Assembly: GCA_016186715.1 (NCBI GenBank)
Contig: JACPLA010000100.1
Span: 157 to 64,156 of the forward strand
Reading direction: 5' to 3'
Length of the DNA: 64,000 nt
From: Ignavibacteriales bacterium
Lineage (GTDB): Bacteria > Bacteroidota > Ignavibacteria > UBA10030
Under the pieces are notes generated by a model. It made no database searches, was not told the origin of the DNA, and was given only the letters and a program-made list of their open reading frames with translations. Positions 18,336 through 37,436 of the stretch are shown piece after piece. Position 1 is the stretch's first letter. Every line of letters begins with the position of its first letter. The position numbers were made by a program, and so were the translations under genes.

Positions 18336-19229
18336 TCAAAAAGAAATGGTTGCGCGGGCGGTCGGTACAAACTCGACGAATCCGAACGGTCTCGCTCTCG
18401 GTTCAAGATGAACTTCGATTCGAAGGGAATTGTTGAACTGGGCTGCACTCCACGCTGCATCCAATGCGCTGAGAAGATGATTCGCCACAAGAACAAAGCC
18501 GGCCGTGCGGGCAACGTTGTAAAAATCGTTTGCCCTTCCCCTCATGTCGCGATATTCCCGGAACCGCATGGTAATCGACGTGAGATGATCCGGAGGTACG
18601 CCGATGAAATCCTCCCATCCAGGATTATACTGCTGATACTTCCCGATCAATTCATAATACTGCTGATCGGGACGCACGGGGAGCCGATGACTGAATCCGG
18701 TGCTTGCCCGTCTTCCGATGATCTCTTCGCATGCATTCAACGCCGCCCAATCCACTCGTTCCCACGGTTCCCCTGTACTTCTGATAATAATTGGCGGACA
18801 CGGAGGGGACCCGGGTTCTGCCAACTGGTCGTAATTATCTTCGATCCATTGTGCGTACTTGACCACAGACCAGTACTGATCGGCGTATTGCTCGAACTGG
18901 GCGGTCTGCCGATCTCCTTTGGAATCATACGTTGCATAGACGATCCAGAGAGCGACCTCAGCCCCAAAGAACGCCATGGACCGCCAGTAGCTCTCCGCGT
19001 AAAATTCGCCGGCCCCGGGAATAACTGCAGAATAGGCGGCCGCACGTAAGGGAGACTTCCGCTGGGGAGACGGTACGGCGGGCGGAATGGAGTCCTGGAA
19101 CTCAAGCCGCACATTGGTCAGCAAATCCAATCTGAGGTTACCGGTCAGCGGTTTGATTTCAACGTCGGATTGTGCCATCGCCGTCTGCCCGACGACAGTA
19201 ACCGCGACTACCAGGACAAAATTCTTCAT
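18336..19229 (-). CDS. Secreted hypothetical protein (last gene of the PorU-PorV operon)
   Basis: Signal peptide MKNFVLVVAVTVVGQTAMAQ. Motif YSAVIPGAGEFYAESYWRS. It starts 2 nt downstream of the preceding gene. Confidence 0.6.
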   Translation of the reverse strand: MKNFVLVVAVTVVGQTAMAQSDVEIKPLTGNLRLDLLTNVRLEFQDSIPPAVPSPQRKSPLRAAAYSAVIPGAGEFYAESYWRSMAFFGAEVALWIVYATYDSKGDRQTAQFEQYADQYWSVVKYAQWIEDNYDQLAEPGSPPCPPIIIRSTGEPWERVDWAALNACEEIIGRRASTGFSHRLPVRPDQQYYELIGKYQQYNPGWEDFIGVPPDHLTSITMRFREYRDMRGRANDFYNVARTAGFVLVANHLLSALDAAWSAAQFNNSLRIEVHLEPRARPFGFVEFVPTARATISF

Positions 19230-19231
19230 GA

Positions 19232-22200
19232 TTATCGAATCCTTCTCCGGGTCAGATCCCCGAGTTCAAAGCCAAACAGCACATTAAAATAGAACCGCCA
19301 CTCTTTTCCATACGAAACGTCCACTCCGCTGAATTGCCTCGTGAACCGGTCGAACCCGTACGCTCCTGAGAAAGTAAAGCGCGTGGGGTATGCATAGAAC
19401 GAGAACGACTCGAGGCGAAGCTCGAAACCGGCGTCTTTTTTCCAAGCGTTGATATCCGGGACAGTCCCCGTCCACGCATTCCCGAAGTCCGTGAAGACCG
19501 AGGCGTAGAGTTTGGTGAAATAGAATTGGAGCAGCCTGAAATCCACGCTCCTCGTCAGCGGAAAGCGATAGCCAAGATGGACGGTTGCCATAGAATTTCC
19601 CCCGAGGGCATAGTACGGATACCCCTTCATTCCGAGCATCCCGCCGGCATAAAAATCGAAAAAGGAGTCGACGGTTTTTCCTAATATTCCGCCTCCCCGG
19701 ACACCCAGTGCCAGCCTATGGTGGCGGAACGGCAGGCTCAGATATTCGTTCCAGGAAATCTCGGCCCTCTGGAAGCTGAAGTTGACGTACTGCGGAACCA
19801 GGACACCATCTTCAACCTCGAACTCTCCTTCCGCATTGAACTTATTGAATTCGTATCCATAACGGAGCATCACCGACCGTCCTCGTGGATTGATCTCATC
19901 ATCGACCCCCGGAAGAATTCCATTGAAGCCCAGGCGCGCCGTGAGCGCGTTTCCAATGAAATACACATTTCGAAACCCAGCAACGAGCGAGTTATCGTTC
20001 GGATTAACGAACGATCCGATGTCTGCGCTGTAGCGGCTCAAGACATAACGAAGCTCAAGCTGCATCTTTTCATTCAGCACAGGATGCCGTGCAACGGCAT
20101 CGAACTCAAAGAGGTTGTAGGTGATCTCAGGCGTGATGGTGACCGGCGACGGGTCAAGGGTGAAGCTGGAAAAGGTTTTTCGCGAAATGCTGTACAGCTC
20201 GAGGGAGAGGGCGGGTTCAAGTCCTTTTCTCCAAATCCAAGGCAGCCGATCCCGATATTCAAGAATTACAAATAAATCTCGTTCGAAGTTCCGATTCAGC
20301 GCCGCTCCAGCAAACAAGCTGAGTTTGTTCAGAACATCGGACGACACCGCATACAGGCCCGGTTTCACGATGTCGATTCCCTTATTCTTCGGATTGTAAT
20401 TATCGACGCGGATAAACGGAATCAAGGAAAGACTCGTAAAGACATTCCGATAGGGACGCTCTTCTGCCGTCACGGTTTCGTTCAAACGCTCATTCCCCAA
20501 CATAACCGGCGGAGAGATGTTCTTTCCGGTTGCTGCAATCAGGCGAGGAAGTTGTCTGTCGATCGGTTTTCGAGATGAAGCCGGAAGGAGCGCGATCTTG
20601 TATCCGTCCGAGGTGTAGGTTGCAAATACCAAATCGCCCGGCGCGTTGACGGTAGGGAGGAACGCTCCTCCCAAAACATTTGTGATCTGCTCCGAGTCGC
20701 CTGTCTCAAGATTATAGGACCAGATATTGAAAATCCCCGTACGGTCTGAAGAATAGTAAAGGACTTTCCCATCGGGAGCAAAGAAAGGATTGCGACAATC
20801 GCCTTCGGCCGCGATCAACCGCATGTCGCCCCCGCCCTCATCAATCAGCCCCAGAGACTGACGGTGTCCGTCTGAATACCCAAACGCAATCGACGATCCA
20901 TCCGAAGACCAGACCGGGGTATAAACCTGTTCTCCATTCACGAACCCTGTGATCTTCCTGAACCCAGTACCGTCCGCCTTTGTGATTCCGATATTCATCG
21001 TTCCATCAGAACCGAAGGCAAACACGAGCTTGGCGCCGTCAGAGGAGAGACGCGGATTTTGGGCCCGTAGTCCTTCCGTGAGCCTGGTTTCTTCTTCCTC
21101 AGCAATGTCATACCGGTACAGATCATAGAAGCGAGACCAGTGAGGATTGTTGTGGGTTGCCTTGGCGTAATACAGCGCTGTTCCATCGGGAGAAAAGGAA
21201 ATTGCCGACCGAACTCCCTCCACGATCCGTTCCGATTTCTTCTTCTTTACATCATAACGATAGACAGAACTCTGCCCGAAGTAATCTCTTCCTTTATTCG
21301 AGACATATGCGACGGCGGTTCCGCCGGGAACAAAGACAGGATGGAAATTGCCGAAGCCTTCGGTCTCGATGAGAATTCCTTCGTTCCGGGTTTCCCCCAC
21401 CCGCTCCTGAACGGCCCGATATTGACTGATCCTGGTTTCCTTCCATCGCCGATACACTTCCAGGGCCGGAATTCCCAAGACAGATTCAATCGCGCCGTCG
21501 ATCGTCACACGGTGAGCGGAACCCAGCTCGCGGGAGATTTCCCGGAGTCTCTCAGCGCCATACTCCTCCGCAATGAACTGCACAATGGAAAAGCCTGCAT
21601 TGTAGGCCGATTCATTTCCGAGACTGTTCTTTCCGAAGACCGCCATCTCCTCCCATGAAAGCGGATTCCCATCGATCATGTACATCCGGAGTATCATATC
21701 TCTATGGCTGTCCCAGTAATCGAAGCTCAGTTCCGGATGATTATACTGGGCCGTTCCTTCGGCAAACCAGCTTGGAACGATAAAGGCCGAAAGAGGGTAA
21801 GACACAAGGACGTTCGGAAATCCGTAGAGCACGTCGGGCCGCCGTTCAGCTTCATATCCGAACCACTGAAAATAGACTCCCGGAATCTTTCGCCCCAACT
21901 TCATTGCCGTTTGGATCTGAATGATGTGCGTCAATTCGTGGGTGATGACATTCCAAAGCCAAGGGTGAATTCCCCTCAGCTCGAAATCCATGGAGGAGGC
22001 CCAGACCTCGATTTTGTTATCGTAGAAATACGCCGCGCCGTTGGAGTAATCGTCGTGATCGCGAAGAATGATGCTGATTTTTTGGTCCGGTTCGTGATGA
22101 TACAGTGTGGTAATGGGACCGTAGACCGCTTCCGCAATCTCGGTACTTAACCTGCCGGTTCGTTCCGCTCCTGTGTGGAAATGGACCAGGAAATGCTCGG

Positions 22201-22324
22201 TTTCGAGCGTTTTCCATTCCAGTTCCGTGTGGGGAAATTCTGCTGTCTGACCGGCCAGAGAATGGGGAAGTGCAGCAAGGAGAGGGCCGACGAGAACCAA
22301 TCGTTTCACAAGCACGCTGATCAT
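19232..22324 (-). CDS. Large secreted multidomain protein: N-terminal HExxH zincin-like domain + TolB-like (PD40) beta-propeller + C-terminal Omp85/surface-antigen-like beta-barrel
   Basis: Signal peptide MISVLVKRLVLVGPLLAALPHSLAGQ. HELTH motif at 21926-21940. Repeated PD40-like blades (SFSPDGTALYY, PRLSSDGAKLVF, PVWSSDGSSIAF, PFFAPDGKVLYY). The C-terminal ~350 aa form a Gly/aromatic-rich beta-strand domain. Confidence 0.7.
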   Translation of the reverse strand: MISVLVKRLVLVGPLLAALPHSLAGQTAEFPHTELEWKTLETEHFLVHFHTGAERTGRLSTEIAEAVYGPITTLYHHEPDQKISIILRDHDDYSNGAAYFYDNKIEVWASSMDFELRGIHPWLWNVITHELTHIIQIQTAMKLGRKIPGVYFQWFGYEAERRPDVLYGFPNVLVSYPLSAFIVPSWFAEGTAQYNHPELSFDYWDSHRDMILRMYMIDGNPLSWEEMAVFGKNSLGNESAYNAGFSIVQFIAEEYGAERLREISRELGSAHRVTIDGAIESVLGIPALEVYRRWKETRISQYRAVQERVGETRNEGILIETEGFGNFHPVFVPGGTAVAYVSNKGRDYFGQSSVYRYDVKKKKSERIVEGVRSAISFSPDGTALYYAKATHNNPHWSRFYDLYRYDIAEEEETRLTEGLRAQNPRLSSDGAKLVFAFGSDGTMNIGITKADGTGFRKITGFVNGEQVYTPVWSSDGSSIAFGYSDGHRQSLGLIDEGGGDMRLIAAEGDCRNPFFAPDGKVLYYSSDRTGIFNIWSYNLETGDSEQITNVLGGAFLPTVNAPGDLVFATYTSDGYKIALLPASSRKPIDRQLPRLIAATGKNISPPVMLGNERLNETVTAEERPYRNVFTSLSLIPFIRVDNYNPKNKGIDIVKPGLYAVSSDVLNKLSLFAGAALNRNFERDLFVILEYRDRLPWIWRKGLEPALSLELYSISRKTFSSFTLDPSPVTITPEITYNLFEFDAVARHPVLNEKMQLELRYVLSRYSADIGSFVNPNDNSLVAGFRNVYFIGNALTARLGFNGILPGVDDEINPRGRSVMLRYGYEFNKFNAEGEFEVEDGVLVPQYVNFSFQRAEISWNEYLSLPFRHHRLALGVRGGGILGKTVDSFFDFYAGGMLGMKGYPYYALGGNSMATVHLGYRFPLTRSVDFRLLQFYFTKLYASVFTDFGNAWTGTVPDINAWKKDAGFELRLESFSFYAYPTRFTFSGAYGFDRFTRQFSGVDVSYGKEWRFYFNVLFGFELGDLTRRRIR

Positions 22325-22989
22325 AGAACCACGTTGACCCTTGTCAAGAAATTTTCCTCAACGTTCACGAGAATGCTTTTCACTGTGGTTCCCGCCTTCA
22401 GCTCAAGCTCAACCCGTCGGCCGGTGGCGTGGAGGCCCAAGAATTGATCCGTCAGGCTGTAGAGCGGTATCCCCGTCTGTGCCAAGGGAAGACTTTCCTG
22501 AGGAATGATGAATCGCCCGTTGACGTCCGACGTCGCTGAAACCGTCCCGTGAACAAGAACGACATACGACGCTCGTTCGGATCCTCCGGCGTGGTACTGA
22601 ACCGTGTACTTTCCGCCGGCAGCCTCGGAACCATCTGCCAGGCGTCCGTCCCAAAGAACCGTGATGACCGAGTCGGTGACGAGGCCCGAAAAAACGGTCC
22701 GGATGATGCGGTTGGAGGCATCGACAACCCGGACCTCGACAGACTCGCTGGAGGCCCGGAGAGCATAGGAACGCGACGGCTCCGGAGTGTTGCTTTCGAA
22801 AATGAATTCATAGAACAACCGGATTTGAACCTGTGCTAACGGTCTCCCGAGCCCATCTGAGACCGTTCCTTCAATTCGAAACCCGTTAATCGGTTCTGTG
22901 TCTGTTGAAAGGGGAATCTCTCTCTTGCAACTCCAGTGTACCAGGAGCAACGCCCAAACAGTCCCTCTGACAAGAGCCGATGTTCTCAT
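22321..22989 (-). CDS. Putative lipoprotein with CarbopepD_reg-like and FlgD-Ig-like beta-sandwich segments
   Basis: N-terminus MRTSALVRGTVWALLLVHWSC, a hydrophobic signal ending in Cys. GTVSDGLGRPLAQVQIRL resembles the carboxypeptidase regulatory-like fold. VLWDGRLADGSEAAGGKYTV resembles FlgD-Ig/CTD-like motifs. It is translationally coupled on both sides. Confidence 0.55.
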   Translation of the reverse strand: MRTSALVRGTVWALLLVHWSCKREIPLSTDTEPINGFRIEGTVSDGLGRPLAQVQIRLFYEFIFESNTPEPSRSYALRASSESVEVRVVDASNRIIRTVFSGLVTDSVITVLWDGRLADGSEAAGGKYTVQYHAGGSERASYVVLVHGTVSATSDVNGRFIIPQESLPLAQTGIPLYSLTDQFLGLHATGRRVELELKAGTTVKSILVNVEENFLTRVNVVL

Positions 22990-22994
22990 AGAGC

Positions 22995-25900
22995 TTACTT
23001 CACAACGGCGATCTTAATAACGACGGATTCCCGCTTCCCCGATCCCTGTGCCTCCAGCCGGGCCAGGTAGATTCCACTCTGAATGTCCTGCACATTCCAG
23101 GTCAGCTCTCCGTCGACGCCTCCGGCTGATTCTCCGCGCAGCTCGGTGATGGAGCCCCCTGCGACATCAAAGATCTTGACCGATATACTCGCGGGTTCCG
23201 TCGTATAGTAACGGATACGGGTCAGCGATCCGTACACAGGGTTTGGCCAGTTGTAGACGCGGTCTTTCGGCAGGAATTCCGTTGAGAGAGGAGACAAGAC
23301 AAGTCCAGAGCCGTCATAGAAGTTGGAATGGCCGGCGTCATTAAGAAATCCCGACCAATGCTTTCGCAGTGCTCCCCACGAGACGGCTGACTCCCACGCC
23401 TGAACGGCCCCGGATGGGCCTGCGACAATCAATCCCAGACTTCCCGATCCTGATTCATAGAGAACCAGCGATCCGTCCCCGGGCGACGCGGCCTGAAAGG
23501 GAAACGACGGAAGCACGCTCCCGTTTCGATCATACCCGAACACGGTTCCGGAACGTGTGAGACAGACCAGGTCCTGATAACCGTTGCCATCAACATCGAT
23601 GACAACCGGCGTTCCCACAAACACATTTCCTCCGGAGAACTGCTTTGGAAAGAAATCCAGCGTTGTCCCGTTTTCGTTGAAAGCATACAGACGTGATCGG
23701 GCAACGACCACAATATCGAGACGACCGTCGCCGTCGACGTCGGCCACAATAATTTCCGAAACCGTGTCGGAAACCGAGATCTCAAATCGTTGATCCCCGG
23801 TTGGATCGTAGGCGGCAACCCTGTGACCGCCCTCCTCCGCCACTGCGAAGATCGCTCCGGTCTGCGAGTTTCCCGCAGCAAGAAGCCACGGTCCTCCACC
23901 TCCCAGTTGGGTCTCATTTTGATTGCGGAACAGCGACCCGCCGCTTGTGAACGTGACGGAGCCATCGGCGCTTGTCCCGCGGGCCAGCCGTTTTACCGCG
24001 CCGCGTCCCGTCGGGAAGAAACTCTGCACCGTTCCATCCAAGCCGACCTTCCAGACGGTCCCCGATTCATCCCCGACAACGACGAGCGTTGTCCCTGCAG
24101 AATCGACCATCATCGGTGGCGCCGTGATCCGATTCGGAACAGCGACAGTGCGAAGACCGACGCTGTCATAGACTCCATCGCCTGTGTTGTCCCACAGCTC
24201 CCAGATCCGCAGCGTGCTGTCCTCCACACCGGCCACAACCGTGCGCGCCGACTCAAGTCCGGCCAGAGGAAACTGACTCGGGGACGCTGAGAGGAGACCC
24301 GCTGGATCCGTGACACCGGATGAACCGTTTTTCTGAAACACAAAAATCCCCTCGGCCGATGGTACGAAAACAGCGGAGTTCATGACAGTCGGATTGCCAA
24401 GCTGCGAGGGCGATCCAAGAGACATCGTCAGCGGCCCCGGCCGAAAATCTCCGGACCCCCGGTCCACCGTCATGACTGCGCGTACAGATTTTGCAGAGAA
24501 CTCTTTCATAGAGATGAAGCTTCGTGCTCCCGCGTTGCTGTTGCTCGACGGAATCGAGGTCTCGCTGAACTCGTTTCGATACACGGGTGCCGGGTTCCCG
24601 GCGAACCACGCATCGGGGGGCCAACCGTTCTCCGTCCCGCTCCCGGCCTCAAGAAACTCATATGGCACCCCGATGTCCTGCGAACCGTCGGCCTCTTCCA
24701 GATCAACGCCTCGTCGTTCCGGATCTGCGTTCACCGAGTTGGAAGCCAGGCCGGCCTCAATGATATCTTCATCGACATGCCAGATCAAAATTCCGCCCCC
24801 TTCGAACGATTGAAGAGACATATCGCCCGAAATCGCCCAATCGAAATCCTCGACGTCGATCAGGGACCCCGTGATCCCCCTGACATCGTTAAAGAAAAAG
24901 CCAGTCGTGTCGCGTTCGTAGTGCCGCGTGACGGTCACTCCGTTTTGAATAAGAGTCACCATCTGACCGTTCCCAAGCGGATCCCGGCTCCTGTTTTCAA
25001 CGAGGAAATACTCCCTGTGTGTTATCGGGATCTTGTAAATCGTGTCGTTGCCAGCTGTCGTCAGGCCGACGGCCGGAAGAATGAGCGATGAAGCCCCCGC
25101 GGCCGGGATGGTGGGGGTGGTCCAGCCGAGGTAAACTTTTTCCCATGCTGAGGGTTCAGGTGGAAACAATCCGCTGTAAGCGAAAATCGCCGCTCCGTCC
25201 ATCAGGCCGAATTGACCAATCCCTGATCGGCCCGTGCGAGTGTCGAAGAGATCCGGCAACCCAAGGAAACTCCCAAATGACGCGGCAAGCAGCCCGTTGA
25301 TGCTCAGCTGGAGAGTATCGCTTCTGCTTCCCGAGGTGAATACGCGTGTTTCGGTTTCAGGAAGAATCATAGAATTCGTTATAAAGAACGACCCGCCGTT
25401 CACAGGGATTCCGGGGAACGCAGGGTCGTTCAAAAGGTCTCTCATCGACGCGAGGTTCAGCGTGACGGAGGGAATGTCTAATGGTGTGGGATCAAATCCA
25501 AAGATGCCGACCAGATCGATGTCCCTGCCGACGCCCGCATGAAATATGATGAAGCCTTCGTATTGCGAAAACGGGAAGGCGGGGTTCAAGTCATTCGCCG
25601 CCGACCAGCTGTCAACAACGAGCCGCGCCAGAGGTTCGTTTGGTCCTTCTCTTGGGGGGGAGTATACAGCCATGTTTTCGGCAAGGGTCACGACAGGACC
25701 AAACAGGTCGGCGCTGATGAGAACCTTGCCGTTGGAGACTTTTCTGAAGTAATTCTCAAGAAAGCGCAGTTTACCGGTGAAATACGATGCATCGTGAGGA
25801 GGCGGATCGATTTGATCCGGGTTTCCCGGGGCGGCAAACGTACCGTCGCCGCTGGTGCGGGAATCCGAATCGCTTTTGAATTCGACCATAAGAGCGAGGA

Positions 25901-26045
25901 CACGAATCGTATCCTCAGCCTGGAGCCGGGGGGAAACAGCGGAGGGAGAAGAAAGCCGCACCCTCGAAAGCGGGCGTTCCTTCGGTTGGGAAAGACCGCC
26001 TGTAAACAAGACAGATAACGCGAAAGCAACAGAAAAAACCTTCAT
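22995..26045 (-). CDS. T9SS cargo: M6/InhA-like pseudo-metallopeptidase (HExxH replaced) + FG-GAP/VCBS beta-propeller repeats + T9SS C-terminal sorting domain
   Basis: Signal peptide MKVFSVAFALSVLFTGGLSQ (ATG at 26043-26045). M6 landmarks are present: GLLAASFGSFLGLPDLFDT aligns to the family's HEFGHxLGLPDxYD block, and SAWEKVYLGW, YFLVENR and ILIWHVDE also match. FG-GAP repeats VADVDGDGRLDIV and VIDVDGNGYQDLV. C-terminal domain ...SVKIFDVAGGSITELRGE...GIYLARLEAQGSGKRESVVIKIAVVK. Confidence 0.75.
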   Translation of the reverse strand: MKVFSVAFALSVLFTGGLSQPKERPLSRVRLSSPSAVSPRLQAEDTIRVLALMVEFKSDSDSRTSGDGTFAAPGNPDQIDPPPHDASYFTGKLRFLENYFRKVSNGKVLISADLFGPVVTLAENMAVYSPPREGPNEPLARLVVDSWSAANDLNPAFPFSQYEGFIIFHAGVGRDIDLVGIFGFDPTPLDIPSVTLNLASMRDLLNDPAFPGIPVNGGSFFITNSMILPETETRVFTSGSRSDTLQLSINGLLAASFGSFLGLPDLFDTRTGRSGIGQFGLMDGAAIFAYSGLFPPEPSAWEKVYLGWTTPTIPAAGASSLILPAVGLTTAGNDTIYKIPITHREYFLVENRSRDPLGNGQMVTLIQNGVTVTRHYERDTTGFFFNDVRGITGSLIDVEDFDWAISGDMSLQSFEGGGILIWHVDEDIIEAGLASNSVNADPERRGVDLEEADGSQDIGVPYEFLEAGSGTENGWPPDAWFAGNPAPVYRNEFSETSIPSSNSNAGARSFISMKEFSAKSVRAVMTVDRGSGDFRPGPLTMSLGSPSQLGNPTVMNSAVFVPSAEGIFVFQKNGSSGVTDPAGLLSASPSQFPLAGLESARTVVAGVEDSTLRIWELWDNTGDGVYDSVGLRTVAVPNRITAPPMMVDSAGTTLVVVGDESGTVWKVGLDGTVQSFFPTGRGAVKRLARGTSADGSVTFTSGGSLFRNQNETQLGGGGPWLLAAGNSQTGAIFAVAEEGGHRVAAYDPTGDQRFEISVSDTVSEIIVADVDGDGRLDIVVVARSRLYAFNENGTTLDFFPKQFSGGNVFVGTPVVIDVDGNGYQDLVCLTRSGTVFGYDRNGSVLPSFPFQAASPGDGSLVLYESGSGSLGLIVAGPSGAVQAWESAVSWGALRKHWSGFLNDAGHSNFYDGSGLVLSPLSTEFLPKDRVYNWPNPVYGSLTRIRYYTTEPASISVKIFDVAGGSITELRGESAGGVDGELTWNVQDIQSGIYLARLEAQGSGKRESVVIKIAVVK

Positions 26046-26154
26046 GACCCTCCGCCGGACTGCAACAGGATGGGAAGAACGGACCGACACCCTAGTGTCT
26101 CGACCTGCAGGACGCGGCACGATTTCTCTTACAAGGTATTTCTTAGACTCGACA

Positions 26155-27267
26155 CTAGAACGGGGATCCTTCCCACCGTATCATCAGAGTGAAGCGGAGT
26201 GTTTCTCCTAAGGGATGCTTGTCTTCAAACGCATCAATGTAGCTGAAGTCGAATCCGTACACATCATATCGGAGTCCGGCCCCGTACGTCATGAACTTGC
26301 GATTTCCGTATTGCGGATCTTCATAAAAATACCCGACGCGGAGGGCAATCAGCCTGGGTGACCCATACCAATATTCAAATCCCATGCTGGTCACAATGTC
26401 GCGCAATTCCTCACTCAACGGTTTGTCGATCCATGAATAGTACAGCGCTCTGTAAAATGGGTCTGTCTTTCCCTGGCTGTTGCGACGAACGAGCAGTTTG
26501 CTGAAATCAAGGATGTACGTCAGGTTGTTGAACTCCGACTGGATGGCATCAACTGCAAACCCGAGTCGAAAGTTCATCGGAAGGGGATCTGCCTGAGCTT
26601 CATCGATGTACGTCAGGTTCGGACCGATGTTCGAAACGTTGACACCGATGCTCAACCGATTGCCGAAATCGATATCTGTAAAAGGGATCATGACGATCCT
26701 CGGTCTGTACATCAGGCCGAGGTCGAAGCTAAGCCCGGAGGCGACGCCTTTGCCCTTCTCCTCCGCCGTTCCAAACGGAGCCAGCCTGCTGTGAATGAAC
26801 CGCACATTGACACCGAGAGCCAGTTCGTCGAAAACCATGGTAGCGTAGCCCGCAGTCAGGGCAAACTCATATCCTTTGAACCTACCGATCTCCTCAGGTC
26901 CGGTCGGGGCCGTTCGAATGAATTCGCCAAGATTGAGATATGTGAGGCCCGCCGAGATTGTCCCGTCCAGGTCAGGAACATTCTGCTTGTACACGGTATG
27001 AGCGATCCAGAGGTCTGAGAGTCCGAACCCGGGGAGCCAATTGGCATGAGACAATGCGACCTCGGAACCGGTCTGATACGCGTAACCGGCCGGGTTCCAA
27101 AACTGCGCCCACACGTCATCGGCAAGACCGGCACCCGCTTCTCCCATTCCGCTTGCCCTCGAATTCGGGGCGATGAGGAGAAACGGAACCGCCGAGGTGG
27201 ACACCTGAGCCGATATCTCGAATGTCATGACGATGAGAAGAATCGGCAGAATGATTTTCTTCAGCAT
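26155..27267 (-). CDS. porV: Type IX secretion system outer-membrane shuttle protein PorV (LptO)
   Basis: Signal peptide, then the PorV-family N-terminal signature PFLLIAPNSRASGMGEAGAGLADDVWAQFWNPAGYA. About 370 aa beta-barrel. It sits immediately downstream of porU. Start chosen at the ATG 9 nt after GGAGG; an alternative ATG is at 27276. Confidence 0.75.
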   Translation of the reverse strand: MLKKIILPILLIVMTFEISAQVSTSAVPFLLIAPNSRASGMGEAGAGLADDVWAQFWNPAGYAYQTGSEVALSHANWLPGFGLSDLWIAHTVYKQNVPDLDGTISAGLTYLNLGEFIRTAPTGPEEIGRFKGYEFALTAGYATMVFDELALGVNVRFIHSRLAPFGTAEEKGKGVASGLSFDLGLMYRPRIVMIPFTDIDFGNRLSIGVNVSNIGPNLTYIDEAQADPLPMNFRLGFAVDAIQSEFNNLTYILDFSKLLVRRNSQGKTDPFYRALYYSWIDKPLSEELRDIVTSMGFEYWYGSPRLIALRVGYFYEDPQYGNRKFMTYGAGLRYDVYGFDFSYIDAFEDKHPLGETLRFTLMIRWEGSPF

Positions 27268-27348
27268 AGACTGCATCCTCCGTGGAAACAAGGTCCCCGC
27301 GAGGGGACGGTTTTGATGATACCAGAATTATTTTCCATTTTCAATACT

Positions 27349-30300
27349 CTAGCGCAGGACCGTCAGTTTTCCGATAACTTCTTCAGAAGTACGACGATCG
27401 GAAGACCGGGTGACAACTTTGTAAAAGTACACACCGTTGGCGATCGGGTCTCCGTTCTGATCGCGCCCGTCCCAGGGAATCCGGACAAACCGGTCGACAA
27501 CGGAAAGCCCTTCTTGAATTTTGACCAGTCTGCCCGCAAGGGTATAGATCTTGACTTCGACGTCGATAGGATCCGACGAATTTCGTTGAAAGGTGAACAC
27601 CGTCGACCGCACAACAGGATTGGGGAAATTAAAGACATTGTAGATTTTCAAATCCGATACCGCGCGGACATCAAAGGCGATTTCCTCCTGAGCCGAATTG
27701 TTGTAAATATCCCATGCCTTGACCTTTAACGAGTGTCCTCCTTCCGAAAGATCCCGAAGTTGATAACGGACTTCTCCGCTCTGATACGTGTCGAGGTCTC
27801 CACGATAGAATGGGGTCAGATCAATGGACTGAGGTATTCCGCTGAGGGTGGCCTCAAGCCGGTGTCCGACACTTGCCGTCGATGTATTGATCCCGCTTTG
27901 GTCGAACAGTTTCACGAGAAGCAACGCATCCGGGGACACGACATCGCCTGACCGGAACGACTCATCATCGAGAAACACCTGCAGGAGAGGCCCCACGCTA
28001 TCGACGGCTGCCGCGGAATCTGTACCGGCGATCACGATGTTCTCCGTATAACCCACGGCATCGGATGAGGAGGACCGGGCATAGACGGAAATGCGGGCCC
28101 GGTTGTTGTCATACGAAACGTCCTTGGGAATGGGAACTGTGGCGCGGAACTTCCCCTGGTTGACGCTGATCTCACCGCGATACAACAGGCTGCCATTGAC
28201 TTCAAAGGAAAAATTCCCCCATTCCGGGACGAACACCCTGCGTTTGGAATCGAACATTTCCAGGAGCGCTCGTCCGGTGAAATCGCCCGACGGAGATCCG
28301 TCCGGTCGGAGAACAAGCCCGTTGATTTCGATACGACTGAGCGCGCTCACCTGGACGAGAGTCGATAACGGAGCGCCGTCGATGCTGTCCACACCTGCAA
28401 ACGTCGCCGGGAGATTTAGTCTCATGGTAGGATCAGCAAAGAGATGGTACTTAATGTCGTTGACACCGGAAAGTATTTGTTTCGTCCGGTACATGGCATC
28501 AACGAGTCTCCGCGGTCTTCCATCCGGATCACGGGGAAACAATTGCGCATAGAGCGTGTTGTTGAACTGTGAATTCTGAAACGAATAAACAGCACGGGAT
28601 GCCGTGACGACACCGATGGCGCCCCCCTGAGCCATGGTCAGTAACAGTTCCCCTGCACTTTCTTCAGCCGGATCGTCATAGCGGGCGAAGTCACAGGTGG
28701 CCGCAACAAGAAAAAAGGGTTGGGTGTAATTTCTGAGCAGGGGCAAGCTGGCCTCACGAGTGAAAATTGCCTCGTGGGCCCAGAGCTGCGGGTTCCCGTG
28801 TCCGGTATAGTTAAGAATAAGCGTCCCATCGTTGATGGCTTCCACGATCGCAGTGTTGGCTGTCGGTTTTCGCCGACCTGCCGCGCTGTTGACCGTCGGA
28901 TACTCCACGATAAAGATCTTCTTCTTTTCCACAATTGCGGGCGTAAAACTCTGCGCCAGGACCTCGGCCTGAAGCGTGTGAATGCTCCCGTCATCCCTTG
29001 TCGAGGTCAGGCCGTCATCCGCGACGTATGTGACGCGATTGCGCCACGGCTCCAAGGGTGCGGTTGTTTCATACGCAATGATCTTATCCACCGCAGCCCG
29101 TGCCTGCCCGAGTGAATTGATCGGAAGGCGACCGATCGCAACCGAAACCTTTGTGTCGCCGGGATTCAGTATGCCCAGATGATCGTCACTGGCATAAGAA
29201 AGGATCTGAAACACCGATTCCAGCGTTTCGTAGGGAGGGATCCAGTTCCGGTTGGAGGCCCGGATGTTTTTGTAATCGTAGTGGCCGTCGCCGAACAGCA
29301 GGACATAGCGGACCGGAACGCTCCAGTTCCCTCGTGTGGAAAGAAGAAAATCCCTGACCGCCAGCGGGTCGGTGTTTCCCCCCGAATACTCATTGACAAT
29401 ATTCTCAATGTCCACAACCAGGCACGTCAAGGAATCTCCCTGTTCGCGATGGGCCGCAAGACGATCCGCTTCGGACCGAAATTCTCTGGGCGTAATGATG
29501 ACGAACTCAGCCCCCGTTGTGAGACCCTGGAGGTTTGTATTCTCCACTTTCCGGACGTTCGTCGGCACAAGGAAGCCGTTCGGACCTATGGCAAGAAACT
29601 GGCGGACGCCTCCCGCGGTCTGCGGCGACTGAAACGCGCACATTCCCGGGTCGATCGGATCGACGGTCAAATTCGTGATTCTCACAACACTGTCATGGAC
29701 GCTCACATCGAAGACATTCACGTCTCGGCTGGAAAAACCGGAGACGCGATATTCCATGACGCCCGTCGTATCGGGCGACGAGAACGCGATGAAATCATTC
29801 AGAGCCTCAAAACGTCTCCGATACAGGATTTCAAACCAATCAAGCCATCCGTTTGCTCCCGACGAATTTGCCGAAAAACTGAACCGAAGAATGCTACGAT
29901 CGTCGGGCAACGTGACCTGGCGCGAGATCGTGGTCAACGGAGCCCGATATGCCGCGTTGCCTTCGATGTCTCTTACATCGATCCCCAACGTGATGATGGG
30001 ATTCCCAAGGGGTTCTCCATTCTCCTCAATCTGGAAAGACTCGTTTGTCAATGAACGCCCCAGAAACAGAAACCGGTAGGTGGTCGGTTTCGCGGAGACG
30101 AAGCCCGGAAGGAGAGTTGTGTACACCGCCGTCCTGCTTTCGGAGTCAAAGAGCGGGCCGAGCCACTGCCTTCCCGAGTGGATGAGATTGTTCCGTTCTT
30201 CCTCCACAAAGACCTTTTCCTGAAAATCTTCGACGAACGGACCGGAGGCATTCCCGGATGCAACGGAATCCATCGACTTCCCCGGATCACCGCCAAACGT

Positions 30301-31266
30301 GAAAAAATAGGCGTTCACATCTGTATAGTGATTGATAGAATGGTTGAATGTCTTTGTCGCAGGATTGTACCGCCACCCGCGCGTCGAGGCGCCGTAGAAG
30401 AGGAGATAATCCTCCGCGTCAAACAGACCGTTTCCGTTCCTGTCGACGATCATGCGGGCAACCTCCTGGAGGCCGCCGGATGGGCGGGGCTCCGAAACTC
30501 CCTCCGGCAGCGGTCTCCCGCCGTTTCCGTAGACGCGGATGGAACCAATGTCGGACACGGCGCTCACGGCAATGCCCGCATTGATGAAGAACGATTGATC
30601 CAATTTGTAAATCCCTGTTTCTCCGATATCCATCTTGTACCATTCGCCCTGCTTCAACGGCGAATCGGGCACTTGTCTCGACGCGACCTGACGGGAAGAT
30701 CCGGCCACTGATTTGACACGGACCACCATCGCGTCGTAGCGTCTCAGGATCTGCCGTGCTTCATCGTACTGAAGGGGATAAAGCTTCAGGAGGATGGTTG
30801 ATGTCCCGCTCAATGTGGTGATCTTTTCCACTTCTGTGAGCCTTGATGGGGCGAACCCTGCGGCTCCAGAAGGTCGGCCGGAAAACACCGGTACAGCTCC
30901 GAATTCCCTTTCGTCTTCTCTTCGGAATGCAGGATACGGCGCAGGGAGATGGCCCGGAAGCTCGGTGTACCGAACATCCACGATTTCCGCTTCCCAGTTC
31001 TCGCCTTGAAGTTCCAACGGAAGCACGCGGAAGGGAATCATCGGTTGTCCGGGATCTTCCCGAGACAAGATTCCGCCGGTAAATCCAACAAAGGTGTAGT
31101 GTCCTCCCCCGGCGCCGCGGATCGCTTGCGTGAAGAACTGCGGGTGGAATTCCAACACGATTGCAGAGGCGCTGCGTTCGCGAACGACCACATCGCCCTG
31201 ATCCTGACCGACGAGGATGACAGTGGAGAGGAAAAAAACAAGAAGTATGGAGATCGAACGCTGCAT
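27349..31266 (-). CDS. porU: Type IX secretion system sortase PorU (C25 gingipain-family cysteine peptidase)
   Basis: Signal peptide MQRSISILLVFFLSTVILVGQ. C25 catalytic His/Cys blocks (NYTGHGNPQLWAHE, FFLVAATCDFARYD). Retained T9SS C-terminal domain (...KIYTLAGRLVKIQEG...GVYFYKVVTRSSDRRTSEEVIGKLTVLR). The adjacent downstream porV is the conserved porU-porV arrangement. Confidence 0.8.
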   Translation of the reverse strand: MQRSISILLVFFLSTVILVGQDQGDVVVRERSASAIVLEFHPQFFTQAIRGAGGGHYTFVGFTGGILSREDPGQPMIPFRVLPLELQGENWEAEIVDVRYTELPGHLPAPYPAFRREDEREFGAVPVFSGRPSGAAGFAPSRLTEVEKITTLSGTSTILLKLYPLQYDEARQILRRYDAMVVRVKSVAGSSRQVASRQVPDSPLKQGEWYKMDIGETGIYKLDQSFFINAGIAVSAVSDIGSIRVYGNGGRPLPEGVSEPRPSGGLQEVARMIVDRNGNGLFDAEDYLLFYGASTRGWRYNPATKTFNHSINHYTDVNAYFFTFGGDPGKSMDSVASGNASGPFVEDFQEKVFVEEERNNLIHSGRQWLGPLFDSESRTAVYTTLLPGFVSAKPTTYRFLFLGRSLTNESFQIEENGEPLGNPIITLGIDVRDIEGNAAYRAPLTTISRQVTLPDDRSILRFSFSANSSGANGWLDWFEILYRRRFEALNDFIAFSSPDTTGVMEYRVSGFSSRDVNVFDVSVHDSVVRITNLTVDPIDPGMCAFQSPQTAGGVRQFLAIGPNGFLVPTNVRKVENTNLQGLTTGAEFVIITPREFRSEADRLAAHREQGDSLTCLVVDIENIVNEYSGGNTDPLAVRDFLLSTRGNWSVPVRYVLLFGDGHYDYKNIRASNRNWIPPYETLESVFQILSYASDDHLGILNPGDTKVSVAIGRLPINSLGQARAAVDKIIAYETTAPLEPWRNRVTYVADDGLTSTRDDGSIHTLQAEVLAQSFTPAIVEKKKIFIVEYPTVNSAAGRRKPTANTAIVEAINDGTLILNYTGHGNPQLWAHEAIFTREASLPLLRNYTQPFFLVAATCDFARYDDPAEESAGELLLTMAQGGAIGVVTASRAVYSFQNSQFNNTLYAQLFPRDPDGRPRRLVDAMYRTKQILSGVNDIKYHLFADPTMRLNLPATFAGVDSIDGAPLSTLVQVSALSRIEINGLVLRPDGSPSGDFTGRALLEMFDSKRRVFVPEWGNFSFEVNGSLLYRGEISVNQGKFRATVPIPKDVSYDNNRARISVYARSSSSDAVGYTENIVIAGTDSAAAVDSVGPLLQVFLDDESFRSGDVVSPDALLLVKLFDQSGINTSTASVGHRLEATLSGIPQSIDLTPFYRGDLDTYQSGEVRYQLRDLSEGGHSLKVKAWDIYNNSAQEEIAFDVRAVSDLKIYNVFNFPNPVVRSTVFTFQRNSSDPIDVEVKIYTLAGRLVKIQEGLSVVDRFVRIPWDGRDQNGDPIANGVYFYKVVTRSSDRRTSEEVIGKLTVLR

Positions 31267-31608
31267 AGAAAAATGAAAAAGCCGAACGACGGTCCATGTT
31301 CCTTCATTCGGCCACTTGGCTTCCACCGAATTCGATAAAGGCTTGCTCCGTCACTGCCACACCTGAACAAACCGCTTCGTTTGATCAGGAACCAACCTTT
31401 AACAAAGACTCGATAGAAGAATTTCCTGTATGCGTTTTACGATCTCGACTCTAAAGATAGCAGAAGGGTGTTTGAGAGTCAAGAAATCGCGTGTGCCATG
31501 TTACACGCACAGACTGAATGCGTTTTTCATTGCGCGCGGGTTTTTTGGTTGCAGTTAGCGCAAAAAATTATTAAATTTCCGTTGTTTTAGACACTTTTTC
31601 GAGGTAGA

Positions 31609-33094: not shown

Positions 33095-33682
33095 ATGCAT
33101 GAAGAGGTTGGCATTTTTTTCGACAGAGACGGAACGATCAATGTGGAGCTTGATTATATCTCGGACCCCGACAAACTGGAGCTTGTTCCGGGCGCGGCCA
33201 AGGCCATTCGGGAAGCCAACGAATTTGGAGTCAAGGTTTTTGTCATCACGAATCAATCCGGCGTAGCCCGGGGTTTGTACACGGAACACGATGTCGAGGC
33301 AGTTCATACGCGGCTCCGCAAGACACTCGCAGACCACGGCGCGCATCTTGACGCCATCTACTACTGTCCGCACCATCCCGAGTACGGGACTCCAGCGTAT
33401 AGAAAAGTTTGCACCTGTCGCAAACCGAAGACGGGAATGCTCCAGGAGGCCCGCAAATCCTTTCGGATTGACCTGAGCAAATCGTATGTCGTGGGGGACA
33501 AGTGTACGGATATCGAGGCCGGCCGCACGGCACACTGTGGCACTGTTCTTGTGCTTACCGGATATGGGGCAGCGGAGGCCGAAGATTGCGGAAAGGCAGG
33601 GGGTGCAGATCATGTGGCAAAGGACATCTATGCGGCGTGGCATTACATCAGGAAAAACATTGATCGGACACAACAGCGCTAG
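33095..33682 (+). CDS. gmhB: D-glycero-beta-D-manno-heptose-1,7-bisphosphate 7-phosphatase (HAD-IIIA)
   Basis: Motif I FFDRDGTIN, then VITNQSGVARG, CYCPHHP...C.CRKPK (zinc site) and VGDK. This is the typical GmhB layout. Confidence 0.8.
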   Translation: MHEEVGIFFDRDGTINVELDYISDPDKLELVPGAAKAIREANEFGVKVFVITNQSGVARGLYTEHDVEAVHTRLRKTLADHGAHLDAIYYCPHHPEYGTPAYRKVCTCRKPKTGMLQEARKSFRIDLSKSYVVGDKCTDIEAGRTAHCGTVLVLTGYGAAEAEDCGKAGGADHVAKDIYAAWHYIRKNIDRTQQR

Positions 33683-34886
33683 GCTCTTTCGTCGTATTCA
33701 AAGCGACGCGATTTTTCCCCGAGTGATCGCCTCCTTCCTGCTTGTGCTTGCAGGATGCGTGGACGAACCCAGCCCCGTCGGCGCCGGGTTGTTCCCTTCG
33801 TCGGATCTTGTCAAACTGGACAGTATCATAGTTATTTCCCACGAGAGTTTCAGCAGGAAAGCTGTCCCCCGGTCGTTCTTCGTCGGAAGCCCGACGACAT
33901 TCGCCGTTGGACGAAGCGGAACGCTGGAGTCGTGGGGGCTGGTCCAATTTCCTGCCTTTGATAATTCACTCAACCAGGCCTCGGCCCTGAGGGCCGAACT
34001 CCGCCTCCGCACTGCCTACCACCTTGGAGATTCGCTGGGTCTCTCCCTCATCGTCCGGAAACCGACGATGAGTTGGAACAGGACCACATTTACGTACGAT
34101 TCTCTGAAGCTCCCTGGGTTTTACGTCCCCACAAATTCACCGGAATTCGACAAAGATGGAGACGAAATCCACATCGAACTGGACACCGCCCTCGTCAACG
34201 AATGGTTTCGGACCGGAACGGCCTCGACGCCGTTCGGGATCCTTTTGGAGCCCACAAACTTCACAGCACTGAAGGGATTTCATAATAGTCTTGCGGATAG
34301 CAGCGATGACAGACCGGAATTGACCGTTGTCTATACACCGAGTGCATCCCAGACAGCCGACACAATTCGATCAACGGGGTTTGTTGAAAAATTTGTCCTC
34401 GGCGCAACCGACACGTCATTTCTCAGCAGTACCACGCTGATGTATGCCCGCGCAGGAGCCGCCTTCCGCGGAGTCGCGGGATTTGATATCCGCGGTGTGC
34501 CTGACCGCGCATCCATTCACCGTGCAATCCTCGAAGTCACACTGGATCCCTCATCATCCGAGTTTACCTCGCAGGTGCTTGATTCTCTCGTTGCACATTA
34601 CATCTTGAGCGACGGATCATTCCAAGAGTTTTCTTTTTCGGCTGCCGGGTGGGTCCTCAACCCGGTCCAGCCCAGCACCGCCTTGACTGAATCCGGGCGG
34701 AGAATTTACCGCTTCACGGTGACCGAATTTGTTCAGGCCTGGGTCAGGGGATACGGAGAACGCCGTATCGGAGTAGCAGCAATGGGCGAAACAACGTCGA
34801 TTGACGGCTTCGCCGTGTTTGGAGCAGCCGCGGCCGATTCTTCTCTTCGACCAAAACTCAGCATCCTTTATTCCCCCACACACTGA
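33630..34886 (+). CDS. Hypothetical lipoprotein with two internal repeat modules (each ending RP(E/K)L(T/S)(V/I)(V/L)Y(T/S)P)
   Basis: Lipobox-like FLLVLAGC. There is no canonical start after the gmhB stop. The nearest in-frame ATG is at 33630 and overlaps gmhB by 53 nt; a TTG at 33660 is an alternative. Repeated motifs are DDRPELTVVYTP and SLRPKLSILYSP. Confidence 0.5.
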   Translation: MRRGITSGKTLIGHNSARLFRRIQSDAIFPRVIASFLLVLAGCVDEPSPVGAGLFPSSDLVKLDSIIVISHESFSRKAVPRSFFVGSPTTFAVGRSGTLESWGLVQFPAFDNSLNQASALRAELRLRTAYHLGDSLGLSLIVRKPTMSWNRTTFTYDSLKLPGFYVPTNSPEFDKDGDEIHIELDTALVNEWFRTGTASTPFGILLEPTNFTALKGFHNSLADSSDDRPELTVVYTPSASQTADTIRSTGFVEKFVLGATDTSFLSSTTLMYARAGAAFRGVAGFDIRGVPDRASIHRAILEVTLDPSSSEFTSQVLDSLVAHYILSDGSFQEFSFSAAGWVLNPVQPSTALTESGRRIYRFTVTEFVQAWVRGYGERRIGVAAMGETTSIDGFAVFGAAAADSSLRPKLSILYSPTH

Positions 34887-36124
34887 TGAAACGATCGCTC
34901 GCATTCGCTCTTGTCTTTTTTCTCACCGGCATCACCGTCGTGCACGCCGGGGGGCCGACGTTTACGCGTTTCGGCCTGGGCGATATTATTTTCTTCGGGG
35001 ATCCGCGGGCATCAGCCATAGGAATAACGGGCATTGCACTAACGGGCGATGGATTCATCAACACGATGAACCCCGCAGGCCTTGCCGGCATCACCCGCAC
35101 AAGAATCTTCGGGGGATTCGAGTACCTCAGCAGTACCATTTCCGATCAAGCGGGTTCTGAACGTTTCGTGCGGGGAGGATTCCAGGGAATCGCGCTTGCG
35201 GTACCGGCCTCCCCGGACGACGGTCTTGTCTTGTTTGCCCAGGCCAGCCCATTCAGCCGGGTGGATTACAACGCGGAAGTGCGAGAGCCCCTTCCCCCAA
35301 GCCCCTTCACTCAGGGACTGAAAGGAGTGGGAGGGCTTTCAAGTCTTTCCCTCGGCGCTTCGTACCGGCCGCTGACCCGCCTGGACATCGGTCTGAAATT
35401 CACGTACTACTATGGCACCATTCAACAGTTGGCCTCGGTGGATTTCGACGATTCCGCATTCGAAGACAGCGAAATCCAGAAATCATTGTTCCACTCAGGA
35501 ATGAACTTCGCGCTTGGTCTTACTTACCGCGGGCTGGCGGATCTTCCCGGGAGTTCGTTCTTCCAACCCTTGACGGTTGGCTTGATCCTCTCGGCCCCAG
35601 CCAAACTCTCCGTGAAAGAAGAACGGATCCTGCTCACCTCCACCTCCTCCGATACAGCGTCGGTTGCCCGGGGCACAACGGATCTTCCGCTCGGCCTTGG
35701 AGTGGGAGCATCCTACCTCGTCGCAGACCGGACGCTCATTTCCGGCGAAGTCTTCCACCAACAGTGGGGATCGGCAAACTTTTTTGGAATTCCACCTGTT
35801 GGAATAAGAAACAGCGGCCGATACGGAATCGGAGTGGAATTCCTCCCCCCCAGGAATCCCGAAACTTATTGGGCTGCGGTGGCATATCGGGCCGGATTTA
35901 CGTACCATTCTTCTTACTATTCGATCAACGGACAACCTGTCAATGAGTGGTACGGCTCTGCGGGCGTCGGATTGCCCATTGGACCCGATGCCAGGCTTCA
36001 CTTGACTGCGCAGATCGGTTCGCGGAGAGCCGCCTCCGGCGCGCTGCCTAAAGAAACCTTCGTAAGGATCTCAGCGTCGTTCAGCGCAAGCGAAGCCTGG
36101 TTCCTTACGATCGAAGAAGACTGA
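34886..36124 (+). CDS. PorV/PorQ-family (FadL-like) outer-membrane beta-barrel protein
   Basis: Signal peptide MKRSLAFALVFFLTGITVVHA. N-terminal motif GDPRASAIGITGIALTGDGFINTMNPAGLAG, compare the PorV block ARa.GMG.A..A..DD....WNPAG. Its ATG overlaps the upstream lipoprotein stop (TGATGA). Confidence 0.55.
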   Translation: MKRSLAFALVFFLTGITVVHAGGPTFTRFGLGDIIFFGDPRASAIGITGIALTGDGFINTMNPAGLAGITRTRIFGGFEYLSSTISDQAGSERFVRGGFQGIALAVPASPDDGLVLFAQASPFSRVDYNAEVREPLPPSPFTQGLKGVGGLSSLSLGASYRPLTRLDIGLKFTYYYGTIQQLASVDFDDSAFEDSEIQKSLFHSGMNFALGLTYRGLADLPGSSFFQPLTVGLILSAPAKLSVKEERILLTSTSSDTASVARGTTDLPLGLGVGASYLVADRTLISGEVFHQQWGSANFFGIPPVGIRNSGRYGIGVEFLPPRNPETYWAAVAYRAGFTYHSSYYSINGQPVNEWYGSAGVGLPIGPDARLHLTAQIGSRRAASGALPKETFVRISASFSASEAWFLTIEED

Positions 36125-36152
36125 ACATCAACTTTCGGAGGTCTCACTCGTC

Positions 36153-37436
36153 ATGAAACGTTTTTTCCTGATTCTGGGCGTCGTCTTACTCCTCACTTCC
36201 CAGGTTGTACCATCGAATGCCCAGACGAAACCGAATGCACCCGAAGCGGCAAAAAACTGGAGTCTCTTCTTTGAATATCATAAGAACGGAGACCACTTGA
36301 GCGCGGTCCCCTATGGATGGAGAGTGATTGAACTTGATCCTGACCGGTTCAAGACGATCTATGTCAAATTGGCCGACAGTTATCTCAGCTTCTCCCTGGA
36401 CACGACCCGGACCCCGACGGATCGGCGCGCCCATGCCGACACGATGATCCTGATTTACGATCTTGGGCTCAAAAACGTGCCCGACCGCGCGGCAGGTCTT
36501 TGGCTCAGCCGGGGATACGCACTCGCCACATATTTCGACGACCGGGGCGTTGAGGCAATCGAGAGCTATGAAAATGCGCTCGCCCTGGATCCGAAAACCG
36601 ACTTCGTCTATGCAGACCAGCTCGGAGTTCTTTATATGAAGAACCTTGAGAAGAACCCGGAATTCAAGAGCCGGGCCGTGGAATTGTATCGAAAGCAAAA
36701 GGAGAAGGACCCGACCAATACGGTCGCCAGTGAGAGGCTCAGGGCCCTCATCAGCGACCCCCAGGAGCTGATCGATCTGGCGGAGCATGATCTCAAGAAC
36801 GATCCGGAAAACGTCGAAAAAATCTGGGATGCGGTGATGGCGTACAAGGAGGGCGAACAGTTTGACGGAGCGGAGCGTCATCTCCTCAAGCTTGTGAAGA
36901 AAGTCCCGAGTGCGGCGAACTATTGGAATGAACTTGGCATCGTCCGGCACAGGGGGGGAAAATACAAGACAGCGATCGAAGCCTACGAGCAGGCCCTGAA
37001 GCTCAATCCTGCCCTCCGGGAGAATCATTTGAACATTGCGGCCAGTTATCGGGCCATGAAGAATTACGCGGCAGCCATTACCACCGCCCAGAGGGCAGCC
37101 CAGCGGGAACGAGGATGGGGCATGCCGTATATAGAGATCGCAGAGGTCTATAAAGCCGCCGTGGAAAACTGCATCCGCGATTTAAAGGGGGGGGATTGGT
37201 CAAAACTCGACTTCGACGACAAGCTCGTGTACCGGCTTGCACAGGAAACATATGCACGGGCGAAAGCAGTCGAGCCGGCGCTGGCGAACGAGGCAAATCA
37301 GCGCGTTAATGAGTTGTCAACGTTGGTACCGACGAAAGAAGACTATTTTTTTAACGACCAAAGAAAAGTCGCCGGCAAGTTTTCCGTTCAAGGCGACTGT
37401 TACAAGTGGGTCAGTGACCAAGTGACGGCACCCTAA
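36153..37436 (+). CDS. Secreted tetratricopeptide-repeat (TPR) protein
   Basis: Signal peptide MKRFFLILGVVLLLTSQVVPSNAQ. Multiple TPR-like helical repeats (AIEAYEQALKLNPALRENHLNIAASYRAMKNY etc.). Confidence 0.75.
   Translation: MKRFFLILGVVLLLTSQVVPSNAQTKPNAPEAAKNWSLFFEYHKNGDHLSAVPYGWRVIELDPDRFKTIYVKLADSYLSFSLDTTRTPTDRRAHADTMILIYDLGLKNVPDRAAGLWLSRGYALATYFDDRGVEAIESYENALALDPKTDFVYADQLGVLYMKNLEKNPEFKSRAVELYRKQKEKDPTNTVASERLRALISDPQELIDLAEHDLKNDPENVEKIWDAVMAYKEGEQFDGAERHLLKLVKKVPSAANYWNELGIVRHRGGKYKTAIEAYEQALKLNPALRENHLNIAASYRAMKNYAAAITTAQRAAQRERGWGMPYIEIAEVYKAAVENCIRDLKGGDWSKLDFDDKLVYRLAQETYARAKAVEPALANEANQRVNELSTLVPTKEDYFFNDQRKVAGKFSVQGDCYKWVSDQVTAP

Follow-up and report, generated by a model that had tools for sequence, protein, structure and literature searches.

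A predicted inactive homologue of the M6 metalloproteases encoded next to the sortase genes porU and porV of an ignavibacterium

The gene that directly follows the sortase gene porU and the gene porV in the genome of an Ignavibacteriales bacterium raises the question of what a secreted, protease-like protein may contribute once the catalytic residues of its former active site have been lost. The gene lies within a stretch of 64,000 nucleotides (nt) of genome assembly GCA_016186715.1 (contig JACPLA010000100.1, positions 157 to 64,156 of the forward strand), which as a whole is referred to here as the window; all coordinates are those of the window, with the strand given as (+) or (-). An earlier note, made from the sequence alone, had described the product as a relative of the M6/InhA proteases that is secreted by the secretion system of type IX (T9SS) and in which the catalytic HExxH motif is replaced by AASFGS, and had suggested a structural or substrate-recruiting role rather than proteolysis. 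The gene for this T9SS-dependent M6-like inactivated metalloprotease (M6i) was located at 22995..26045 (-) on basis of the list of open reading frames (ORFs) and a match to the NCBIfam model NF052323.1. The complete open frame, 22995..26120 (-), reaches up to a GTG at 26120 and encodes 1041 amino acids (aa); residue numbers throughout are those of this frame.

The relation of M6i to peptidase family M6 is clear. The family landmarks that had been listed in the earlier note, namely LGLPDLFDT, GIGQFGLMDG, SAWEKVYLGW, YFLVENR and ILIWHVDE, were all recovered in the translation of the M6i ORF. The top lists of the homology searches were filled by the M6i family itself, and active M6 comparators were taken from plasmids by tblastn: an ORF of Phyllobacterium (PF05547, 109.5 bits) and the Bacillus toyonensis protein WP_215596053.1 (PF05547, 33.6 bits). 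In a BLASTP comparison, aa 276-379 of M6i are 41% identical to the Phyllobacterium M6 protein (expectation value, E, 7e-16), with GLLAASFGSFLGLPDLFDT placed against GVFSHEFGHFLGLPDLYDT and without a gap across the site. The same register was obtained with hhalign, in which a 37-member family profile was compared to the M6 protease of B. toyonensis (aa 116-561, probability 98.4%, E 1e-14; AASFGSFLGLPDL against AHELGHSFGLPDL). The homology between M6i and M6 that is apparent from these alignments is far beyond chance, and the residue-for-residue correspondence to the M6 zinc block that had been claimed before holds.

In the motif HEXXHXXGXXD a single catalytic zinc is bound by the two His and the Asp, and family M6 is listed in clan MA(M) (PMC3890501). 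The alignments, together with a table of the residues found at the zinc-site positions, identify A280-S281-F-G-S284-F-L-G287-L-P-D290 (25251..25283 (-)) as the degenerate counterpart of this motif in M6i. More specifically, the reverse complement of 25269..25286 reads GCC GCG TCA TTT GGG AGT and encodes A279 A280 S281 F282 G283 S284, inside the segment TLQLSINGLLAASFGSFLGLPDLFDT. The proposed replacement of the first His by A280, of the Glu by S281 and of the second His by S284 stands, with the small correction that the flagged hexapeptide AASFGS (aa 279-284, 25269..25286 (-)) consists of one preceding residue followed by the five motif positions. Of the complete motif, M6i has lost the two His and the Glu and retains G287 and the third-ligand D290. 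The Met-turn methionine M307 (25200..25202 (-)) is retained as well; it is aligned to the LM in the sequence of the active M6 protein, and no variation was seen at this position in the family alignments A1 and A2. The HExxH motif is absent from the entire M6i protein. Because both His and the general-base Glu have given way to Ala, Ser and Ser, M6i is, as far as these residues tell, unable to hold the catalytic zinc or to activate water in the canonical way, and it would be without peptide-cleaving activity.

The M6 domain model TIGR03296 matches M6i with 61.7 bits (E 1e-16), short of its cutoff of 110.8; this local match starts at aa 285, directly past the lost motif. PF05547 gave no match even at E <= 1, and the Pfam matches in M6i are limited to FG-GAP repeats and the T9SS tail. 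The AlphaFold2 (AF2) model of aa 68-560 (predicted local distance difference test, pLDDT, 81.3; predicted template modelling score, pTM, 0.87) had a sole significant match when compared to the PDB with Foldseek, the immune inhibitor A2 of Bacillus anthracis (4yu6, E 1e-11, template modelling score, TM, 0.54), and as modelled the region has the InhA-type fold with its catalytic and VEG-like domains. No M6 structure was returned by sequence searches of the PDB, whether the query was the whole of M6i, the profile of its family or the segment around the site. By these measures M6i is a homologue of peptidase family M6 and not a peptidase member of it, because it remains below the Pfam and TIGRFAM thresholds and lacks the defining HExxH, while the fold, the Asp and the Met-turn are present.

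The loss is a property of a family and not of a single protein. M6i scores 810.9 bits (E 1.8e-243, cutoff 600) with the NCBIfam equivalog model NF052323.1, "T9SS-dependent M6-like inactivated metalloprotease" (T9SSA_dep_M6i). Judged by this score, by its type A C-terminal sorting domain (CTD) and by its inactivated motif, that is by every feature that was tested, M6i belongs to this family. The inactivated, M6-like nature of the protein had therefore already been curated by NCBI, and the find of the earlier note is a correct rediscovery; what is added here beyond the curated name is the link to the porU-porV operon and the pattern of conservation. A review of pseudo-metallopeptidases from 2024 makes no mention of M6 or of the T9SS (PMC11266112).

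According to the earlier note its claim would be refuted by an intact HExxH elsewhere in the domain or by evidence against homology to M6, and neither was found; the note had also advised to look for the same substitutions in orthologues. HExxH was found anywhere in none of the 120 closest homologues of M6i and in none of 147 further representatives of 50% clusters (267 proteins in total), and the motif at the site is degenerate in all of the 80 species-level genome loci (35-54% identity). Among the 243 family sequences that were anchored for the residue table, the first-His position is occupied by A, N, S, G or T. The Glu position carries S in 181 of them (N, T, M, C, Q, A or D in the rest) and the second-His position carries S in 212 (mostly N in the rest), while the third-ligand Asp was retained in 243/243. 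Two divergent members, P0250 and P0265, are also without this Asp (LGLPALF and IGLPSLF, respectively), so that some of the family can do without even this final trace of the zinc site. With relatives encoded in at least 550 species genomes and 595 cluster representatives counted at E <= 1e-30, the family is a large one.

Within the protein, the dead-site segment is the part that has been conserved best. The region from the dead site and its helix up to SAWEK (aa 275-335) has a mean identity to M6i of 82%, and 56% of its columns are conserved at 90% or more. The corresponding identities are 60% for the CTD, 55% for the rest of the M6-like domain and 32% for the beta-propeller, and aa 1-67 are unconserved. 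The difference between 82% and the 32-60% found elsewhere indicates that the former site is in use and under selection, rather than decaying.

The layout of M6i is that of a T9SS type A cargo. The features concerned are a predicted N-terminal Sec signal peptide, read by eye from the translation (MKVFSVAFALSVLFTGGLSQ, aa 26-45, 25986..26045 (-)), and the type A CTD (aa 950-1041, 22998..23273 (-)), which scores 24.1 bits with TIGR04183 (cutoff 23) and 24.9 bits with PF18962, slightly below the cutoff of 27. In between are found the M6/InhA-like domain (catalytic-domain fold plus VEG-like subdomain, aa 68-560, 24441..25919 (-)) and a beta-propeller with FG-GAP/VCBS repeats (aa 561-935, 23316..24440 (-)), the latter recognized by Pfam FG-GAP_3 (42.2 bits), the AF2 model and Foldseek. 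In the full-length AF2 model (pLDDT 76.7) an all-beta propeller spans aa ~561-935 and a beta-sandwich aa ~950-1041. The Foldseek result for this model was dominated by beta-propellers, the best fits being 8-blade propellers or designs (TMt 0.79). Because this layout includes both a predicted signal peptide and a type A sorting domain, M6i is predicted to reach the cell surface by way of the T9SS. The start of the protein is likely the ATG at 26045, which yields 1016 aa; a public protein (P0001, source label Ignavibacteriales metagenome-assembled genome) is 100% identical to M6i, has 1016 aa and starts at the same ATG. In the family consensus a Gln is conserved directly after the signal peptide (around 25986..26045 (-), alignment A1), which resembles the 'Q-rule' for signal peptidase I substrates of the Bacteroidetes. 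This rule has been reported as not general to the Fibrobacteres-Chlorobi-Bacteroidetes group (PMC5837995).

A position beside the sortase had been claimed for the protein as well, and the next two genes upstream were identified as porV and porU. The first gene of the block, porU (27349..31326 (-)), encodes the T9SS sortase with its C25 peptidase domain (NF033707, 959.2 bits; PF01364, 282 bits), and its true start is probably located downstream of the GTG at 31326. It is followed by porV (26155..27291 (-); PF19572; NF033710, 259.9 bits with a cutoff of 250), which adjoins M6i on the upstream side. Downstream of M6i the block continues with a gene for a 222-aa FlgD_Ig-domain protein (22321..22989 (-); PF13860, 36.7 bits), a gene for a 1030-aa protein that combines an intact HExxH with a TolB-like propeller and an extended C-terminal region (19232..22324 (-)), and a gene for a DUF5683 protein (18336..19229 (-); PF18935, 33.4 bits), the last conserved one. 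The block genes are on one strand and tightly spaced: the FlgD_Ig gene, for instance, starts 5 nt past the stop of M6i and shares 4 nt with the gene that comes next. The boundaries of the block are formed by uvrA and a divergent glgA.

This order is strongly conserved. The 80 species loci were compared, and each count was taken over the testable loci only. In 70 of 71 loci porV is found directly upstream of M6i, and porU adjoins porV in 52/52. In 52 of 56 loci the distance from M6i to the downstream gene for the 1030-aa protein is 2.5 kb or less, and in 49 of 53 the DUF5683 gene comes directly after the latter gene. The FlgD_Ig gene is a variable member that separates M6i from the 1030-aa gene in 21 loci only, and the flanks are variable too (uvrA 8/49, glgA 35/47). 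The HExxH of the 1030-aa protein (HELTH, aa 129-133) was kept in all 62 orthologous loci. No curated family fits this protein; it has a weak match to Peptidase_MA_2, a TolB-like PD40 propeller and, in its C-terminal region, a faint TamA-like match, and this region may be an outer-membrane barrel.

Two further observations concern the porU-porV part of the block. The 58-nt gap between the stop of porU and the start of porV contains a perfect GC-rich hairpin, GTCCCCGCGAGGGGAC (27293..27308), that might serve as an attenuator inside the operon or as a site of RNA processing. In addition, the models NF052323-NF052325 are numbered consecutively, the M6i model being followed by models for 'PorU2' and 'PorV2', which suggests that the curators linked M6i to a second sortase/shuttle pair in some lineage. 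The neighbours of M6i in the window score as canonical PorU and PorV, not as PorU2 and PorV2. No further T9SS component was found among the 20 other ORFs of the window that were scanned against NCBIfam.

What, then, could a protease homologue without its zinc site do at this position? We propose, tentatively and with close to an even chance of being right, that M6i takes part in the PorU/PorV attachment step as a binding partner without a catalytic function. The protein would be a catalytically dead M6 homologue that is exported by the T9SS to the cell surface. Its former active-site helix and cleft would survive as a binding site instead of a cutting site, as suggested by the fact that no other part of the protein is conserved as strongly. 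With the cleft, and perhaps with the propeller too, M6i would bind a surface ligand during attachment, and it might hold for the PorU transpeptidase either the C-terminal region of a cargo protein or the anchor molecule. A connection with this particular step is suggested by the nearly invariable third position of M6i in the porU-porV-M6i block and by the conservation of its CTD, which is like that of PorU (mean identity across 72 species loci 54.8% for M6i versus 55.5% for PorU). We infer that M6i binds a ligand and is physically associated with PorU/PorV, and the structural or substrate-recruiting role that had been put forward in the earlier note would fit the data on conservation and synteny.

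Precedents for such a function, which make it plausible by analogy, are PorZ and the pair PIGS and GPAA1. PorZ of Porphyromonas gingivalis has two propellers and a CTD that is not cleaved by PorU; it binds the anionic lipopolysaccharide (A-LPS) and presents A-LPS to PorU in the PorU-PorV-PorQ-PorZ attachment complex (PMC8545088). PIGS and GPAA1 are dead, protease-like subunits of the eukaryotic glycosylphosphatidylinositol (GPI) transamidase complex and have been proposed to recruit substrates (PMC9098846). By extension, M6i might be a stoichiometric, CTD-retaining subunit of the T9SS attachment complex in ignavibacteria that replaces or supplements PorZ, in which the dead metzincin cleft or the propeller holds the C-terminal linker of the cargo or the anchor glycolipid for PorU, and which would be a bacterial counterpart of PIGS/GPAA1, the helpers of the cysteine transamidase in GPI anchoring. 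In this full form we consider the idea unlikely, though worth stating.

Several points weigh against a role of M6i in the attachment step. Literature searches revealed no paper on the M6i family and no experimental data. Synteny inside one bacterial class can partly reflect inheritance and not function. The identification of M6i as PorZ itself had to be rejected, considering that the PorZ model NF052228 gives 16.1 bits with a cutoff of 260, that the match covers the CTD only and that the architecture differs; moreover, PorZ is not among the top fold matches that Foldseek returned for the full-length M6i model. Finally, the conserved neighbour with an intact HExxH, the 1030-aa protein, is an alternative partner for M6i.

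The last point leads to the explanation that survives best next to the one we propose, namely that M6i is a T9SS cargo of the ordinary kind. It would then be a protein that is anchored at the surface and binds without catalysis, such as an adhesin or a module for the capture of proteins or peptides, that plays no role in the machinery and resides in the porU-porV operon for co-expression only. As such, it may supply substrates to the neighbour with the intact HExxH, a putative outer-membrane protein whose gene is co-conserved downstream in 52/56 loci and whose motif was kept in 62/62. The type A CTD is the standard signal of cargo, FG-GAP propellers are common as ligand-binding modules, and the name given by NCBI reads 'T9SS-dependent' and does not designate a T9SS component. 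It is not usual, however, for cargo genes to stay fixed next to porU-porV in over 70 genomes with identities down to 35% and with changing flanks, and the CTD of M6i has been conserved as strongly as that of PorU itself. Altogether we regard the explanation as a real possibility, albeit a somewhat doubtful one.

Far less probable, in our view, is that M6i still is an enzyme, in which Ser281, Ser284 and Asp290 together with their invariant surroundings form a non-canonical catalytic or metal site with another hydrolase chemistry or metal geometry. The extreme conservation of the former active-site segment (82% identity, 56% of the columns at 90% or more) could be read in this way, and so could the preference for Ser at the positions of the Glu (181/243) and the second His (212/243) and the presence of the Asp in 243/243. 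Yet the positions of the lost ligands do not hold a replacement His, Glu or Cys as a rule but tolerate Ala, Gly, Asn, Met and Thr, a His is found at the next position in only 50 of the 243 sequences, two divergent members are without the Asp too, and HExxH occurs in 0/267 sequences. A role as replacement ligand is likewise unsupported for the other invariant His residues: H448 is part of the WHxDE that both active M6 comparators have in common with M6i, and H194 (FHAG) is shared with the Phyllobacterium one. That M6i is a decaying pseudogene, or that the loss of the motif is a sequencing or assembly artefact, has nothing in its favour beyond the origin of the sequence from a metagenome-assembled genome and was rejected as next to impossible in view of the intact ORF of 1016-1041 aa, the relatives in at least 550 species genomes (595 cluster representatives), the absence of HExxH from all 267 family proteins, the degenerate motif in 80/80 loci and the top conservation of the degenerate site.

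Elsewhere in the window, three consecutive envelope-type genes were observed at 33486..37436 (+), which encode a protein with a DNRLRE domain, a BamG-like one (223 bits, cutoff 250) and a tetratricopeptide repeat (TPR) protein. The product of a gene at 44560..45786 (-) resembles the CFB-type serine palmitoyltransferase (NF047600, 477 bits with a cutoff of 640), which hints at the synthesis of sphingolipids in the source ignavibacterium.

To our knowledge, the attachment step of the T9SS has been worked out almost wholly in Porphyromonas gingivalis. M6i is of interest as a tangible candidate for an accessory of the sortase step that is specific to the lineage of the deep-branching Ignavibacteria, considering that it follows porU-porV in nearly every genome checked and that its former active site is the part conserved best. 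It would also provide a clear example from nature of how a metzincin scaffold was repurposed for binding. If M6i is mere cargo, the finding only confirms the existing database annotation. The linkage to the operon and the pattern of conservation together provide a testable hypothesis on T9SS attachment in the Ignavibacteria.

A comparison with the known systems summarizes what is particular to M6i. Nothing structural sets the protein apart from the family described by NF052323.1, of which the curated name assigns no function. With PIGS and GPAA1 there is no sign of common descent; these proteins act in other cellular compartments and with other partners, and the association of M6i with PorU is only proposed. 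The likeness to PorZ is closer in the sense that M6i is also predicted to be a T9SS-exported surface protein with a propeller followed by a CTD, and that its gene is tied to porU and porV. PorZ, however, has two seven-bladed propellers, whereas M6i has one (aa ~561-935), preceded by the added dead-protease domain. The clearest relation is that to the immune inhibitor A peptidases of MEROPS family M6, such as InhA2 of B. anthracis (PDB 4YU5/4YU6) and PrtV of Vibrio cholerae. M6i shares with these enzymes LGLPD including the third-ligand Asp, the Met-turn Met, SAW-K, YFLxENR and WHxDE. In contrast, it has A-S-x-x-S where they have HExxH, it remains below the thresholds of PF05547 and TIGR03296, and it is without a conserved N-terminal pro-segment. 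M6i carries extra conserved insertions between ENR and WHVDE, and where the enzymes of Bacillus and Vibrio have their C-terminal modules it has the beta-propeller and the T9SS CTD.

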